Source: a virus
UHGV virus genome: UHGV-0141727
Direction: 5' to 3' (one strand)
Length of the DNA: 64,000 nucleotides
The stretch's first letter is position 1. Each line of letters starts with the position of its first letter. This document shows positions 40,546-63,063 of this stretch, piece after piece. The position numbers and the translations under genes are program-made. Below the pieces are notes generated by a model. The model worked only from the letters and a program-made list of their open reading frames with translations. It did no database searches and had not been told where the DNA came from.

Positions 40546-41226
40546 TCAGCCACGGATTCCCTCCTTATTTGCTTCAAATACAGCTCTTGCAAAACCGTAA
40601 GGTGTCGCGCTACGAAAATTCGCTCTTTCAGGTCCTGGCGGTGCCTTGTGTATTCGGTTATCTGGATCACCTAACGACTCGTCGATTCGCGGAGTTGGCA
40701 TGATGAATCCTTGTCCGCTCCACAGGCATGTTTTTTTGGTGTAATTGTCTTCCTTGCAATATGCAGTGAAGTGATAAGGATGGAATATGTGGTCAGGTTT
40801 ACGCCAGAATGTCGATATTTGGCTGACCGGGTTTTCAATCATGTACGGGCAACCAATCATCTTTGCAATGTCGTAACACTGCCAGACAACCTGCATTGCT
40901 TTGAACTGGAAAACCGGATCTTTTTTCGCTTTATCTGCGAACCAGCGTGCGCCAGATACAGCCAGGTCAGTACATGGAGGGAAACCGGCTAAAAATACAA
41001 CTCTGTGCAAATTTTTCCGAAGGAAATTGTAGACCTCATCACTGTCAATAATTGCGCTGATACGTGTGAGTACAGCACCTGACTCCATCAATTGGCTGCC
41101 GGACTCCTGGTGTTGCGGATCGACAATGACTGCATCAATGCCGTGTTCCAGCCAGGGGGAAACCATATTCCCTGTATAATCACAAAGACTCACCGCCAGC
41201 GGTCGGTTATTAATGCTCTGCTTCAC
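40546..41226 (-). CDS. short C5-cytosine methyltransferase-like protein (motifs I, IV, VI present; no obvious target-recognition domain)
   Basis: ORF 40546..41352; GFPPC and ENP motifs; GTG 41226 with GGAGG RBS overlapping rdgC end. Confidence 0.4.
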   Translation of the reverse strand: MKQSINNRPLAVSLCDYTGNMVSPWLEHGIDAVIVDPQHQESGSQLMESGAVLTRISAIIDSDEVYNFLRKNLHRVVFLAGFPPCTDLAVSGARWFADKAKKDPVFQFKAMQVVWQCYDIAKMIGCPYMIENPVSQISTFWRKPDHIFHPYHFTAYCKEDNYTKKTCLWSGQGFIMPTPRIDESLGDPDNRIHKAPPGPERANFRSATPYGFARAVFEANKEGIRG

Positions 41227-42115
41227 CGCCAATGGCCTCCACCAGCGAGCTAAACATCGCGGATAATTCGCTTGTGAACAGAATGAAGTCAGCATCAAAT
41301 CGCTGGGCAACATCTTCACGGTCGATGTCATCGTTCTGGTCATAGAGATCATCGCAAAACGTCAGTGCTTTGATGCTCATGTCATCGTTTAACCTGAAGG
41401 TCGCGCGGTCCTGCCAGTTGATTGCAACTGTTGTTGCAACTTTTCCGGCTTCAATATGAGTCATTATTTCCTCTGACTGTAGGTCTACTTTCTTGCAACG
41501 AACTGCGCCGCCGTCATCGAACAGAGATTTCAATATGGCTTCTTCGCCTGCTTTAAAGCCTTGAGGAAATGTTGACTTGAACCATTCGGTCATAGTCATT
41601 TCGAGCGGTTCTATCGGCGTGAATGGAATCACCGGAAGGCTGCCAAGTGATTTACGTAAGAGCGCCAGCATTTCTTCTGCTTTTCTGGCGCTGGAAGCTT
41701 CTACGAAGACCAGATAGTTGTCGCGATCAATAAGGATTCGCGACAATGATTTGCGAGTGAATGCGCGAGGCAACAAAGAGTGGAGAACTTCATCCTTCAG
41801 GGTGTTTTTTTCCGACTTCTTCAGCTTACGGGATTGCTCATTTTCGAGCTTTTCCACTTTTTTCTGCACTTCCTCCTTAATGACATGAGAGGGCAGGAGC
41901 TTAATTTCTCGCTGTTGCTGGAGAAGTAGAAAACCGTGGTATTCATGGATCAGGTTGTCAGCCAGAACCGGCACCCATCCGACTTTTGCCATTTCTTGTG
42001 ATGCGCATGGAGTGAATGTGAATTGGCTTAAGGCATCACTAACGGTGGTTGAGTCCAGTTTAATTTCGCGGGCAAGGCGATAGACGTATATGTTTTTAAA
42101 TGCGACCAATCTCAT
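41210..42115 (-). CDS. rdgC: recombination-associated protein RdgC (P1 HrdC-like)
   Basis: 301-aa ORF recalled to resemble E. coli RdgC along its length (recalled from memory, not searched). Confidence 0.8.
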   Translation of the reverse strand: MRLVAFKNIYVYRLAREIKLDSTTVSDALSQFTFTPCASQEMAKVGWVPVLADNLIHEYHGFLLLQQQREIKLLPSHVIKEEVQKKVEKLENEQSRKLKKSEKNTLKDEVLHSLLPRAFTRKSLSRILIDRDNYLVFVEASSARKAEEMLALLRKSLGSLPVIPFTPIEPLEMTMTEWFKSTFPQGFKAGEEAILKSLFDDGGAVRCKKVDLQSEEIMTHIEAGKVATTVAINWQDRATFRLNDDMSIKALTFCDDLYDQNDDIDREDVAQRFDADFILFTSELSAMFSSLVEAIGGEAEH

Positions 42116-42123
42116 ATTTCGTA

Positions 42124-42165
42124 AAACTGTGTTAGAAAATAAAACTCAATTATCTAACACAGTTT
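42124..42165. promoter_or_regulatory. perfect 13-bp inverted repeat AAACTGTGTTAGA/TCTAACACAGTTT operator-like site upstream of rdgC operon
   Basis: member of TGTTAGAA motif family. Confidence 0.45.
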
Positions 42166-47833: not shown

Positions 47834-47890
47834 AACAGTTCCTCACAGTCATAACCTGTGGGGAACTGTATGCAGGGTGTGAAATGCGGG

Positions 47891-47913
47891 AAAGCAGCGT
47901 CACCTGGCCTGGT
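47891..47913 (-). terminator. hairpin GCGTCACC/GGTGACGC downstream of higA-like gene
   Basis: 8-bp inverted repeat. Confidence 0.3.
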
Positions 47914-47925
47914 GACGCTGTAAAA

Positions 47926-48207
47926 TTATGCGTGGGAAAATAATGGACGGATGTTTGGGCGAGCGGTTTGCGAAGCAACCCAAAGCTCATACTGGGATTG
48001 CATACCGGTCCACATTTCGGCACTGGTTCCAAGAGCGGACTCCAGACGAAGTGCCATATCAGCAGAAATACCTGTTTTTTCGTTCAGAATTCGGGAAAGT
48101 GCCGTGCGAGTAATGCCTAATGCAGCAGCTGCGTCTGTGACTGACATGTCTCCCAAATATTCACGAAGAACCGCGCCTGGATGCGCGGGATTATGCATAC
48201 GACTCAT
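47926..48207 (-). CDS. HigA/VapI-like HTH antitoxin
   Basis: 93-aa [14 protein letters not shown]...DMALRL. Confidence 0.55.
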
Positions 48208-48503
48208 ATGTGGAAAGCAACCCGTTTACCGGTTGGCAATTCAACGTCCAGACTCAACTTTCCACCCATAGCCTCAACGTAACGTTTAAGCGTTGCTACT
48301 TTCAAGTCATTGCCTCGTTGTTCAAGTTTTGTGATGGCTGGTTGACTAATTCCCATCGCATCGGCAACTGTTTTTTGTGATAACTGAAGCTCCTCTCTCA
48401 ACATCTGCAATCCGACTTCCAGAATCATTTCATCAGCCTGCTCTTTGATACGAGCTTGGCTTTCAGGGGATTGCGCAGCAATAACTTCTCTTAGAGTTCT
48501 CAT
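48204..48503 (-). CDS. XRE-type HTH antitoxin-like protein
   Basis: 99-aa ORF with HTH, immediately downstream of RelE/HigB-like gene. Confidence 0.5.
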
Positions 48504-48850
48504 TATTTTTTCTCAAGTTCTGCAAGATGGTTGGAAAATTCGTCGTCTGCAATCCGTATCATTCTTTCGTAGAACTTTTTATCGTTACTCTTATCTCCGG
48601 CGCACAGGATTATGGCTTGCCTTACCGGATCAAATGCGAAGAATGCTCTGATAGGGCGACCAGCGTACTGAATCCGTAACTCCTTCATGTTTTTATGGCG
48701 TGAGCCTTTAACTGTGTCGGCATATGGCCTTGATAATGAAGGGCCATATGTTTCCAGATTGATCAGGTCAACCAGGATTTTTTCTTTTAATGCAGGTTCC
48801 TGTTCCTGGAACCATTCATCAAAAATTTTTCCAAAATAAATTTGCCACAT
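48503..48850 (-). CDS. RelE/HigB-like addiction-module toxin
   Basis: 115-aa ORF; ELRI...GDKS motif pattern; precedes two HTH genes. Confidence 0.5.
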   Translation of the reverse strand: MWQIYFGKIFDEWFQEQEPALKEKILVDLINLETYGPSLSRPYADTVKGSRHKNMKELRIQYAGRPIRAFFAFDPVRQAIILCAGDKSNDKKFYERMIRIADDEFSNHLAELEKK

Positions 48851-52923: not shown

Positions 52924-53254
52924 TTTGACACCCCCAGCGCGAGTAAAGAATGCAGATTATCGCGTGAGTGGCGGACAACGAGTGATGGGAAAAGACAGTA
53001 GCTGTTCATAGTGTAGTGACTCCTTGCTTTTGGAGCCGCCATCGACTGTTCCACGGTCTGGTGGCGGCGCAATAAAGGTTGGAACACCGTGAGTCAACGG
53101 GGGCTTTTCAGCCACCTATATTGCACCGCCATTGGTATGGCGGCGGCAATCATACGAAAAACCAAACGGTTTGTCTCAAAAAGTTGACCGGTGTACCAAT
53201 CGGTTGTGAATGTACAACGGTGAATTTCACAATTCAACTTAAAATGTTAGAAAA

Positions 53255-53830
53255 CTAATTTATTAATTCAGTCACCATCTGATACAACGTCATTTCATCG
53301 GCATTGTGCCGCCTGAAATCTGCTTTGCCGCCTATTTTTCCATCAGCATGAACAGGGACCAACCAGGGGTATTGCTCGCGTATCTCTGCTGGCGCTGCGT
53401 GTTGATGGTGCCATTTACACAAAGGGAGAACGTATTTATGCGCGTTCTCTGCCGTTCTCCCGAAGATGTGGTGCAGGGATACCACAGGGCTATGCTGTCC
53501 GTGCATATGGCAGGCAATGCAGGGGAGAGCACCGATGGCAGTTTGTATCCGGCGCTCATCTGCTGTGAGCGTTCTGCCTTTCAGGCCACGTGACGTGCGC
53601 GTTTTTTTGACTGGAGCAGAAGCGGCCTTCTCTTTTCTTCGCTGTTCATATTGCTTCGCTTTTTCAATTTTCTTTTGCCGATATTCAGGCGATGCAGCCT
53701 TTTCTCGCGCACGCTGCTGCTGGCGTTGAGCTTGCTGAAGACGCTTTGCCCTTTGTTCCTCCCGCCATTTCGGATCAGCCAGTTTTTTCAGGGCTTTTTG
53801 CGTCTGTTTCTCCCAATAGCTTTGCTTCAT
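53255..53830 (-). CDS. Ref-like HNH-type nuclease (P1 recombination enhancement function-like)
   Basis: ORF 53255..53872; Lys/Arg/Gln-rich N-terminus, C-terminal Cys/His cluster CIACHMHG...HHIFG...PLCKWHH. Confidence 0.45.
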   Translation of the reverse strand: MKQSYWEKQTQKALKKLADPKWREEQRAKRLQQAQRQQQRAREKAASPEYRQKKIEKAKQYEQRRKEKAASAPVKKTRTSRGLKGRTLTADERRIQTAIGALPCIACHMHGQHSPVVSLHHIFGRTAENAHKYVLPLCKWHHQHAAPAEIREQYPWLVPVHADGKIGGKADFRRHNADEMTLYQMVTELIN

Positions 53831-53872: not shown

Positions 53873-53911
53873 ATGTGTTAGAAAATCAAAATTGATTTTC
53901 TAACACAAAAT
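53873..53911. promoter_or_regulatory. near-perfect 34-bp palindrome TGTGTTAGAAAATCAA AA TTGATTTTCTAACACA in divergent promoter region
   Basis: strongest member of the recurring operator-like motif family. Confidence 0.5.
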
Positions 53912-57904: not shown

Positions 57905-58212
57905 GCATCATTGTAGAAATGCCGGTAGAACGTGATGAATATGGCTGCTGGACACATCCGGAGTATGAAAAGTTTTGCGCAGGTCGTGAATATATATCCA
58001 CTGAGGAATTTGACGCCTGGATGAAGGAAAATAATCTTCAGTGGACTATTCGCAGTATGGATGAAGATGATTTTAATCTGGACGCAGATGGCCCCGATAT
58101 TGCCGCCTGGGAACCAGAGCGACCAGAGGGCGAAGGCTGGTTTGTTGGCTCTATTCATGACACTGAAGATGGTCCGGTTTGTATCTGGCTGCGGGAGAAG
58201 GTTGCCGCATGA
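57901..58212 (+). CDS. hypothetical acidic protein
   Basis: ORF 103 aa. Confidence 0.3.
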
Positions 58213-58895
58213 CCCAGGTGCTGCATGAAGTGAATTTATATAGCCGTATTGATGGTTCAGGCTACAGAAACATATGGGTTGTTGGTGATTTGCACGGTTG
58301 CTACACCCTACTTATGAATGAACTCCATCGTGTGGATTTTGACCCTACACAGGATTTACTGATATCGGTTGGCGACCTTATCGATCGCGGCACCGAAAAT
58401 GTTGAATGCCTGGAGCTATTGCAGATGCCCTGGTTTCGGTCGGTTATGGGAAACCACGAGCGATTAATGATCGATGCGTTAAGTCCCGCAGGCAACGTGA
58501 ATAACTGGCTAATGAATGGTGGTCAATGGTTCTTCATGCTGGACGCTGATCGGGAAATATTAGCCAGGGCGCTGGTGGAGCTGGTAAGACGTTTGCCCTA
58601 TATCATTGAGCTGAACACCGGGCATGAAACTATCGTTATAGCCCATGCCGACTATCCTGATAACGAATACCAGTTTGGTAAACCTGTTAGCGATCTCAAT
58701 GTTACCTAGCGGCGTGAGCGATTTTATGACGCGGTTGATGGTGTTGGTGGAATAATCACTGGTGCAGATAGCTTTATTTTCGGGCATACGCCAGTAAGCA
58801 GCCCGAAATCTTTCTGGAACCAGCACTACATAGACACTGGTGCGGTTTTTTGCGGAAATCTGACGCTAAAGCAGGTGAAGGTAGGGCAGTCGTAA
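58209..58895 (+). pseudogene. lambda-type Ser/Thr protein phosphatase interrupted by in-frame amber codon at 58707-58709
   Basis: GDLHG, GDLIDRG, GNHE motifs before the TAG; GHTP and IDTGAVF motifs continue in frame after it. Confidence 0.6.
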
Positions 58896-58925
58896 TCCTG
58901 AACACATCGTTTATGCACTCAAAAT

Positions 58926-58960
58926 GATGTTAGAATATTGATTTTAATTTTCTAACAGAT
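58926..58960. promoter_or_regulatory. operator-like inverted repeat TGTTAGAA-N14-TTCTAACA upstream of 59000 gene
   Basis: member of recurring motif family. Confidence 0.4.
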
Positions 58961-58999
58961 TATTTTACCGCTCGGAACAAAACAGAGTCGGTATACATT

Positions 59000-59995
59000 A
59001 TGAGTGCAATAATCACACCTCATTTCGTAAACGGAGCTGGTGTGGCTGTCTTTCCGGTAGACAAGCCCACCAGTAACTACATTGGCGCAGGTCGCCGTTT
59101 CATTATCTCTCCACTTCCGCGTGAACAGGCTGAAAACACGCCAGATGGCGTAGTGGATCTGAATTATTCGCTGGTTGCCAACCAGTCTCTGAAACCGTTT
59201 TTTCAAAGCGAGCGCGTATTTAACGCGTTGGGCGGTGAAGATTCGCTTGTTCATTGGGTAAGTTCCAATATCCACGATTGCCAGGCGCACGATAAGCGCG
59301 ATTGCAGCCACCAGCTAACCACTCATTTCTATAACGGCTCTGCCGTTCGCCTGTGCTGGAAGCATGATGCGGAATACATGATGAAGGGGTACAGCAAGCT
59401 GGACGACCAGTTATCCCTGAATCGTGCCAACTGGGTTATGAACTGGGCTGCGAGCGAGTTAAAACTACCGCCAGAACGCGATCTGAGCATGGTTGAACTC
59501 ACTTTTTGGGCCATTCGCCGAAATCTTAAAGACGAGCTGCCAGATGAAGCCGGTCGCATTGCATTTTGTCAGCCAAAACAGGAAATCCCTACCGGCACAC
59601 TGAAAGAATCGGATATCACCTGGGAGCACAGCACCCGTGAGCTGGTGGACATAACCGCAGAGCAGATCGTCAACCTGTCTGTAGATGAGGATTCCGGCCT
59701 GCTGTATATGCGCCGACCAAAAGCGGTTCTCGGTAAAAGCCCGACTTATCTCCGGTTTGTGATTTCTCGTCCGTGCATCGGATGCGGTGGCAAAGTTAAT
59801 CACCCGTTCATGTACCGCGCCCGCTCGTTAAACGAACACGATCGCTGGGCCGTTCCTCTTTGCGATGAATGCGCCAGAAGCGCAGAAAACGATGTCCGTG
59901 CATGGGAAAAAGCACATGGCATACGCCTTTACGTAGCCGCTAACCAGCTTTTCGACTTCGCCATCGAGCGCGGAGTGATCACGTTCAATAACTGA
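59000..59995 (+). CDS. hypothetical protein with C-terminal Ref-like Cys/His cluster
   Basis: 331-aa ORF; PCIGCGG...H...VPLCDEC resembles the C-terminus of 53255..53830. Confidence 0.35.
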   Translation: MSAIITPHFVNGAGVAVFPVDKPTSNYIGAGRRFIISPLPREQAENTPDGVVDLNYSLVANQSLKPFFQSERVFNALGGEDSLVHWVSSNIHDCQAHDKRDCSHQLTTHFYNGSAVRLCWKHDAEYMMKGYSKLDDQLSLNRANWVMNWAASELKLPPERDLSMVELTFWAIRRNLKDELPDEAGRIAFCQPKQEIPTGTLKESDITWEHSTRELVDITAEQIVNLSVDEDSGLLYMRRPKAVLGKSPTYLRFVISRPCIGCGGKVNHPFMYRARSLNEHDRWAVPLCDECARSAENDVRAWEKAHGIRLYVAANQLFDFAIERGVITFNN

Positions 59996-62550: not shown

Positions 62551-63063
62551 ATGACCAGTATTACCAGAGAACAGGCCAAGAAAATTATTGAAGCTGCCGA
62601 TGAGGTTATTAGTGCGCTTGCCGGAACTAACGAGGATGTTCACCCTGGTAGCGATAACATGCTACGTCTGTGGGATGACCTGAATGACCGTTACGCGCCG
62701 CCGGAAGTTGTGCGTGAGCTGGCGCGTATCGTGCTGGCATCGCTGGAAGCGGAGCCTGTAGCGTGGCGATATCGCTACGTGAAAAAAAGCGTTACGGACT
62801 CTCAGGGGGAGCCGTGGGTTGGTGACTGGAAATATGTACCGACAAAAGAGGATTGCAACGACAGGCCGAGCTATGAGATTCAGGCCTTATTCACTGCCCC
62901 GCCAGTCCCGGTGACATCAGAAGGACTGGTTAAAGCCGTGCGTTTCTATGAACAAGTTAAGCGTGAAAATCCGCCAGTCGAAACCGGAGCATGGAAAGAC
63001 GCGGTTGACTGGGTGCTCAAAGAGGCCTGCCAGGTTGTAAACACTGGCATCAAAGGAGACTGA
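62551..63063 (+). CDS. hypothetical prophage early-region protein
   Basis: ORF 170 aa; ASLEAEPVAW motif shared with next-but-one ORF. Confidence 0.35.
   Translation: MTSITREQAKKIIEAADEVISALAGTNEDVHPGSDNMLRLWDDLNDRYAPPEVVRELARIVLASLEAEPVAWRYRYVKKSVTDSQGEPWVGDWKYVPTKEDCNDRPSYEIQALFTAPPVPVTSEGLVKAVRFYEQVKRENPPVETGAWKDAVDWVLKEACQVVNTGIKGD

Follow-up and report, generated by a model that had tools for sequence, protein, structure and literature searches.

Genes and features at the locus

The stretch of DNA analysed here, hereafter the window, comprises 64,000 nucleotides of the virus genome UHGV-0141727, and the subject is one of its genes, which encodes a 331-aa protein of the PdcB/YdfU family (DUF968). 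The window is a D6-like phage-plasmid of the P1 family, that is, a plasmid prophage; the annotated neighbourhoods show Ref, Icd/Ant, ppp, hot, humD, phd/doc, a Cre-like recombinase, a repressor, pacAB and repL. The region around the gene displayed 94.5% nucleotide identity to phage D6 and 99% to the E. coli plasmid pEC361_3, and was found in 106 of 5426 complete E. coli genomes, nearly always on plasmids of about 90 kb. The coordinates of the features discussed are listed in Table 1.

The open reading frame (ORF) is intact, its C-terminus reads SRPCIGCGGKVNHPFMYRARSLNEHDRWAVPLCDECARSAEND, and it is the first gene of a tightly packed operon on the + strand which extends from 59000 to at least ~63300. 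An original prediction, made from the letters of the sequence, had described a 331-aa protein ending in PCIGCGG...VPLCDEC behind an inverted repeat of an operator family, and both are present: the inverted repeat TGTTAGAATATTgattttAATTTTCTAACA, with 12-nt arms that are 92% complementary, lies just upstream of the gene and is of the same type as the one at ref. The ATG at 59000 is the correct start, since residues 1-14 are conserved across homologues. For the pEC361_3 orthologue (47838-48791), the Prokaryotic Genome Annotation Pipeline chose a GTG that lies 42 nt past the conserved ATG; this start, equivalent to position 59042 of the window, removes 14 residues that are conserved in the family.

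Table 1. Features of the window (one strand, 5′ to 3′) that bear on the PdcB-type gene.
Feature	Position	Strand	Details
Coding sequence, PdcB/YdfU-family (DUF968) protein, orthologue of D6 orf98	59000..59995	+	331 aa; Pfam, PHROG, identity
N-terminal helical module, aa 57-160, with zinc-type ligand set	59168..59479	+	alignment; predicted structure
C-terminal treble-clef/beta-beta-alpha (His-Me-like) domain, aa 245-331	59732..59992	+	alignment, predicted structure, profiles
30-bp palindromic operator-type site	58928..58957	.	TGTTAGAATATT-gatttt-AATTTTCTAACA; same family as site upstream of ref
Candidate sigma-70 promoter, overlapped by the operator-type site	58938..58966	+	TTGATT 58938-58943, TATTTT 58961-58966; inferred from sequence
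Perfect palindrome, putative operator of the same family	53876..53905	.	upstream of ref ATG; faces divergent + strand operon
Third palindrome, putative operator of the family	42130..42159	.	upstream of rdgC-like gene (41210..42115, -)
Ref-family RecA-dependent HNH nuclease gene, comparison partner	53255..53830 (/53872)	-	PF16786 E 6e-36; PHROG 2321 E 2.5e-81

Family membership and relatives

The protein passed the gathering threshold of Pfam DUF968 (PF06147), scoring 152.7 bits where 27.8 are required (E 1.3e-44), aa 161-325 corresponding to profile positions 1-171, and it matched PHROG 96 ('HNH endonuclease') over its full length (E 3.5e-103). The profile search for DUF968-type families that had been proposed as a check thus identifies it as a DUF968 member. 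It is 98.2% identical in amino acid sequence to orf98 of D6 (YP_009914775), annotated as 'similar to P1 gene pdcB', and shows 37.5% identity with P1 PdcB (AAQ14077) across 99% of the length. The ydfU-type genes of SfV, ST64B, Stx phages and Vibrio and Klebsiella phages showed approximately 26% identity to it over 98-99% of the length. Full-length collinearity was also evident from tblastn, with query coverages of 98-99% for P1, SJ46, RCS47, SfV and the ydfU genes of Stx phages. On these comparisons the gene is best described as the D6-lineage orthologue of P1 pdcB, encoding a full-length YdfU/DUF968 member.

An exhaustive hidden Markov model search of 1.84 billion representatives gave only 136 relatives; a word-indexed protein search returned close relatives only, even with a profile, and the canonical members were reached by the exhaustive search. 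The target shares an N-terminal zinc module, a middle region and a C-terminal finger with YdfU of the E. coli Qin prophage and with lambdoid DUF968 proteins such as SfV orf45, at an identity of about 26% over 98-99% of the length. The genes for the latter are located in the nin region, between RusA and Q, whereas the gene studied here belongs to a plasmid-prophage accessory operon.

Databases and literature already contain the gene and its family, with an annotated D6 orthologue, and also class the family among the His-Me fingers, where DUF968 and DUF1364/YbcO together fall in group 7 (PMC5714182). P1 pdcB appears in the literature as a non-essential gene of unknown function (PMC10695390, PMC10067587, PMC10999674), and its knock-outs and knock-downs had no phenotype (PMC10695390, PMC10067587). 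No functional study of YdfU was found in the literature searched. Neither NCBIfam nor PADLOC gave a match for the target, for a canonical member or for Ref, and there is consequently no evidence for a role in a defence system.

Loss of the HNH site in the C-terminal finger

In the canonical members of the family the finger has the sequence QPCxxCG..ADDPHHIIGHGxGGMGTKAHDLFxIPLCRxC/H-H..LH, a textbook HNH site of the zinc-finger kind: two His end strand 1, and further His follow at +1 and +5 after the last zinc ligand. The four HNH His positions are occupied by H in 28, 29, 28 and 28 of the 29 representatives outside the PdcB clade. The corresponding residues of the target are F270, M271, A292 and E296, and in the five representatives of the PdcB clade they are F/Y, M/L/Q, A/T/Q/Y and E/A/D/R, with no His in any of the five. 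These representatives were the window protein, two other D6-like clusters, the P1 PdcB-like protein and one further lineage. The catalytic His that closes strand 1, H in all 29 of the others, is thus M271 (M, L or Q in the clade), and the metal-ligand positions, which are the first H of HH and the H/N at +1 and +5 after the last zinc ligand, hold F270, A292 and E296. The second nuclease envisaged in the original prediction is thus supported in part only: the term nuclease is not supported for a protein that, like the whole P1/D6 PdcB clade, lacks the HNH histidines.

The scaffold of the finger is retained. The zinc cysteines C259, C262, C288 and C291 as well as D281 and P286 were kept in all five PdcB-clade representatives, and a beta-beta-alpha fold with a flanking zinc knuckle is predicted for the target: strand 1 comprises residues 269-271, strand 2 residues 284-286 and the helix residues 289-297, while C259/C262 precede strand 1 and C288/C291 stand where the helix starts. 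The loop between the strands is 7 residues shorter in the PdcB clade than in the canonical members. The target, P1 PdcB and D6 orf98 are alike in being collinear over the full length, in having lost the HNH His and kept the four Cys, and in residing in P1-family plasmid prophages. The YdfU and lambdoid DUF968 proteins, unlike the target, keep the full HNH signature.

The degenerate motif was common to all 19 clusters from the first protein search, including two shorter sequences. In a neighbour-joining tree built on residues 1-250 alone, so that the motif was left out, the PdcB clade was monophyletic with a bootstrap value of 99/100; the His were therefore lost in a single event, in an ancestor common to the P1 and D6 genes. 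The databases call the gene an 'HNH endonuclease' (RefSeq D6, PHROG 96), yet the whole clade is devoid of the HNH active site. Transfer of function from canonical YdfU-type proteins or from Ref is therefore unsafe, and the common label appears doubtful for the PdcB clade. A statement that the active site is absent from this clade was not found in the searchable literature.

We noticed the reverse pattern in some canonical YdfU-type proteins (P0041, P0049, P0054, P0062, P0082 and others), in which the catalytic His is kept and zinc Cys are lost. C262 is replaced by T in 7 of the 29 canonical members, and C291 by A, E or S.

Relation of the C-terminus to Ref

The comparison partner on the - strand of the window is, by its profile matches and motif, a bona fide Ref. 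Its C-terminal region reads LPCIACHMHGQHSPVVSLHHIFGRTAENAHKYVLPLCKWHHQH, and the HH...C..HH.H motif is intact, with PCIAC...SLHHIFG...AH.YVLPLCKWHHQH. A resemblance between its Cys/His cluster and the C-terminus of the target had been the starting point of the original prediction. The pattern PCIxC...(V/L)PLC is indeed present in both proteins, but by itself it is not above chance. Direct comparison gave no significant alignment, neither by BLASTP of the target against the Ref of the window (E 0.13, 9/36 identities) nor by profiles, of which that of the PdcB clade against a Ref-family profile of 112 sequences gave E 0.042 with a probability of 1.3%, and that of the D6 clade against Ref gave E 0.0053 with a probability of 7%. 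RecA_dep_nuc (PF16786) gave no match for the target at E up to 1, the Ref of the window scoring 123 bits. The prediction had itself named a failed alignment of the two C-termini as what would refute it, and taken formally the BLASTP and PdcB-clade results are such a failure.

It is through the family that the relation becomes visible. A DUF968-family profile of 34 sequences aligned with Ref by hhalign at E 3.4e-6, and the canonical YdfU-type members matched the 112-sequence Ref profile at E 9.1e-7 with a probability of 91%, over 79 columns which span the zinc knuckle, HH, AH(D/K), PLC..H and the trailing helices. One canonical member (P0033) matched Ref by BLASTP (E 0.002, 17/46 identities), and PHROG 1588 was matched by both window proteins (Ref 1e-15, target 0.0088). 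Compared by sequence with all PDB chains, the target had no match up to E 10, and Ref was reached by structure comparison only, in which it was the top structural neighbour of the target in two independent models. The next neighbours were the IscB HNH (6.3), 9hmo_A (6.1), which is the C-terminal domain of tRNA threonylcarbamoyladenosine dehydratase, YbcO 3G27 (6.0), GVE2 HNH (5.6) and Cap5 (5.1), and then McrA and Cas9 HNH domains. The last ~85 residues of the target share ancestry with the nuclease core of Ref, and the link is real but indirect, via the canonical members and predicted structure. That two unrelated zinc fingers came to look alike by chance or convergence, as the direct BLASTP, the PdcB-clade profile and the missing RecA_dep_nuc match would allow, is very improbable in view of the family profile, the P0033 match, the canonical alignment that includes HH, AH(D/K), PLC and the C-terminal helices, the shared PHROG and the structural neighbours.

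The two proteins differ in what surrounds and fills this core. In P1 Ref (PF16786; PDB 3PLW) there are three His ligands, including H153, which hold the active-site metal, together with a general base and two bound Zn (PMC3973344); the target has no equivalents of these histidines. The Ref family is marked by a disordered basic N-terminus of ~76 aa directly before the HNH core, and the Ref-like protein of the window has a K/R/Q-rich N-terminus. The target instead has a structured N-terminal region of ~245 aa, in agreement with the different and larger N-terminal domain that had been predicted. YbcO/DUF1364 of the DLP12 prophage (PDB 3G27) is a stand-alone finger of ~96 aa, and the target has no significant Pfam YbcO match.

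The N-terminal module

The ~245-aa N-terminal region is mostly well predicted, and the predicted local distance difference test score exceeded 90 over the N-terminal module in model 2. The zinc-type ligand set of this module (C94, C/H102, C119 and H/C122) is placed around a predicted beta-hairpin and helix (aa 106-129) and is conserved in at least 28 of the 29 other representatives and in all five of the PdcB clade. A search of BFVD returned only stand-alone DUF968/HNH fingers of ~110 aa and nothing for the N-terminal region.

Within aa 94-123 (59279-59368), the Cys/His set is followed by D123 and the order of elements matches that of the C-terminal finger. This suggests an old internal duplication of the zinc module, which is not claimed here; hhalign aligned the two modules in register at E 0.03, which is not significant.

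Neither Pfam nor structure comparison revealed in the target the Orf/NinB-like domain that has been proposed to occur in Gram-positive 'DUF968' proteins (PMC4118853). Fusions of the N-terminal part of the family to tail-tip J, tail collar/fibre, portal, capsid and Q domains (P0052, P0106, P0110, P0034, P0080, P0060) were set aside as uninformative architectures, being probably chimeras of prophage decay, deletion or assembly.

The operator-type palindromes

When up to three mismatches were allowed, the pattern TGTTAGAAAAT-N8-ATTTTCTAACA occurred exactly three times in the 64-kb window, at the three palindromes of Table 1, and not at all in 100 shuffles. The distance from palindrome to ATG is 43 nt at the target gene and 46 nt at ref. 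Exact single half-sites were found at 2775, 3974 and 34059. The palindrome at the target gene is conserved in pEC361_3, and in phage D6 it is present with 3 substitutions. In pEC361_3, which is collinear with the window, a half-site stands directly before the 'phage repressor protein' gene, repL (lytic replication), icd/ant, rdgC and ref; the repressor gene starts at 58372 and the half-sites are at 58259 and 58344.

We take the operators of the P1 C1 repressor to lie at c1/coi, kilA-repL, c4-icd-ant and ref. Since the half-site positions match these, the palindromes may be read as the putative operator set of the D6-type prophage repressor. The D6-type half-site TGTGTTAGAAAATTAA is loosely similar to the P1 C1 operator (Olpa, ATTGCTCTAATGTATTG), and the two are not claimed to be homologous. 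In P1, pdcB comes after phd-doc-pdcA and no C1 operator is annotated before it, whereas the D6-type gene comes after ppp and has its own palindromic operator-type site. The -35-like and -10-like pair in and after the palindrome (Table 1) would fit an operator that overlaps a promoter: the 17-bp spacer of this candidate promoter holds the right operator arm, and 8 of 12 positions agree with the consensus.

Further single or paired half-sites of the TGTTAGAAAAT type were recorded at 53245 and 668 of the window, in addition to the exact ones, and at 62786, 66848-66877 and 68112 of pEC361_3, in addition to those at the repressor gene. The genes behind such further half-sites include icd/ant, repL, the repressor gene and a gene divergent from the capsid gene, among others, and the half-sites together outline the whole putative repressor regulon of D6-type plasmids.

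A PdcB-type gene of 53% identity on the JGI contig Ga0496126_0008427 (4256-5248) is located near a Cre-like integrase and a PF27008 C1-type repressor, and also adjoins genes for the type VI secretion protein Hcp, SRAP and a Y-family polymerase. A comparable TGTTAGAAAAT-type palindrome was looked for upstream of this homologue and not found, so the position and control of PdcB-type genes differ between plasmid-prophage lineages. This element is evidently of a different immunity type.

Proposed function and alternative explanations

The most likely explanation, to which we assign a probability of roughly 0.65, is that the D6-type PdcB is a catalytically inactive 'pseudo-HNH' zinc-finger protein, which binds DNA or a DNA-protein complex without cutting and is silent in the prophage. 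It is preferred because the four HNH His are replaced, the zinc Cys are kept, and the degenerate C-terminal domain is the best-conserved part of the protein within the clade (67.6% mean identity versus 50-60% elsewhere). The course of events may be depicted as follows: a YdfU-type HNH protein would have lost the general-base His and the three metal-binding His in an ancestor and so become the non-catalytic PdcB, and the zinc-stabilised treble-clef/beta-beta-alpha finger would have been retained, most plausibly to bind DNA or a DNA-protein complex. Repressor bound at the palindrome overlapping the presumed promoter would probably keep the gene silent in the plasmid prophage, and inactivation of the repressor would probably switch it on together with ref, because the same operator type is found at ref, rdgC, repL, icd/ant and the repressor gene.

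A partial precedent for a non-catalytic role of such a finger may be seen in Gp16 of the Staphylococcus phage phiNM1 (PF16784, HNHc_6), which after Ref is the closest relative with biochemical work behind it, a RecA-interacting HNH nickase encoded by an early phage gene, for whose effect the zinc-finger residues are essential: the in vivo effect was abolished by zinc-finger mutants and not by the catalytic mutant H157A (PMC12817073). The fingers of the two families are related; Gp16 matches DUF968 at E 1.2e-6, and canonical YdfU-type members match HNHc_6 weakly. The target itself displays neither the combination of a NinB/Orf-like N-terminal domain with an HNH finger that marks HNHc_6 nor a match to the model of that family.

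Several points weigh against an inactive, repressor-controlled finger protein. Some single substitutions are tolerated by HNH enzymes: nicking persists in Ref H153A (PMC3973344), and the phenotype of Gp16 survives the H157A change (PMC12817073). A non-canonical site is conceivable, given that H280 and D281 never vary and that position 270 or 272 holds a Tyr throughout the clade, a residue used by some His-Me fingers (PMC5714182). The conserved N-terminal motif C119-W-x-H122-D123 could form part of another active site that has gone unrecognised. As to regulation, a consensus scan of 58650-59100 for promoters and terminators, at a threshold of 9 of 12 positions, found nothing; we infer repressor binding at the palindrome from placement; and the pEC361_3 repressor, whose gene is outside the window, has a product that matches no Pfam family and falls in PHROG 1678 (unknown function).

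That the protein is instead an active HNH-type nuclease, working with non-canonical catalytic residues or with its N-terminal Cys/His module and directed to its targets by the large N-terminus, is unlikely when the general base and the three metal ligands are non-His throughout the clade and His in at least 28 of the 29 others. A292 and M271 are unable to bind metal or to act as a base. The current 'HNH endonuclease' annotations, the place of the family in the His-Me finger superfamily (PMC5714182) and the HNH-like fold all speak for a nuclease, as does the conservation of H280, D281, R282 and an aromatic residue or Tyr at 270/272; but H280 and D281 are conserved in the canonical members as well, where they are not the catalytic pair. 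The C-W-H-H-D-N motif of the N-terminal module is likewise conserved, although the similarity of that module to the C-terminal one is not significant, and the P1 pdcB knock-outs and knock-downs were without phenotype. Strong purifying selection on the C-terminal domain also favours a nuclease. The same conservation bears on another alternative, by which the gene once encoded an active nuclease and is now carried along in an accessory region as a functionless remnant in decay. The non-essentiality of P1 pdcB, the lost catalytic residues and the premature stop in the adjoining upstream ppp gene of the window would suit such decay. It is very improbable all the same, because the ORF is intact in each of the 17 clusters, which range from 47 to 98% in identity, the degenerate domain surpasses all others in conservation, and the codon changes relative to D6 are 23 synonymous to 6 non-synonymous; the gene has moreover been kept in both the P1 and the D6 lineage. 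By these measures the C-terminal domain is not decaying.

For the preferred inactive zinc-finger protein, a more specific role may be imagined. The nearest relatives of the DUF968 family are two phage nucleases linked to RecA, Ref and phiNM1 Gp16, and the D6-type gene shares its operator type with ref. PdcB-type proteins might be catalytically dead members of this circle which still attach to RecA filaments or D-loops and modulate recombination without cutting, although we regard this as improbable. If true, PdcB might for example temper or direct the co-regulated Ref after induction, and the two would form a natural pair of nuclease and pseudo-nuclease under one operator type. Apart from this, the gene is one of the ordinary accessory genes carried by a common plasmid prophage of E. 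coli, and the corrected annotation is useful but no surprise to the specialist. The result provides a testable handle on pdcB of P1, to which no function has been assigned since the P1 genome was annotated.

Neighbouring genes and annotation

The ppp-like metallophosphoesterase gene upstream of the target (58179-58895) has a TAG at 58707-58709, where pEC361_3 and D6 have TGG. Its product is thereby shortened from about 228 aa to 176 aa in the window; the frame is otherwise intact.

Among the relatives, RAST-style records call YdfU-type genes 'Phage antitermination protein Q', as in phage mEp460_4F5 (2995-3984), in which the true Q is the next ORF. This label is a propagating misannotation.

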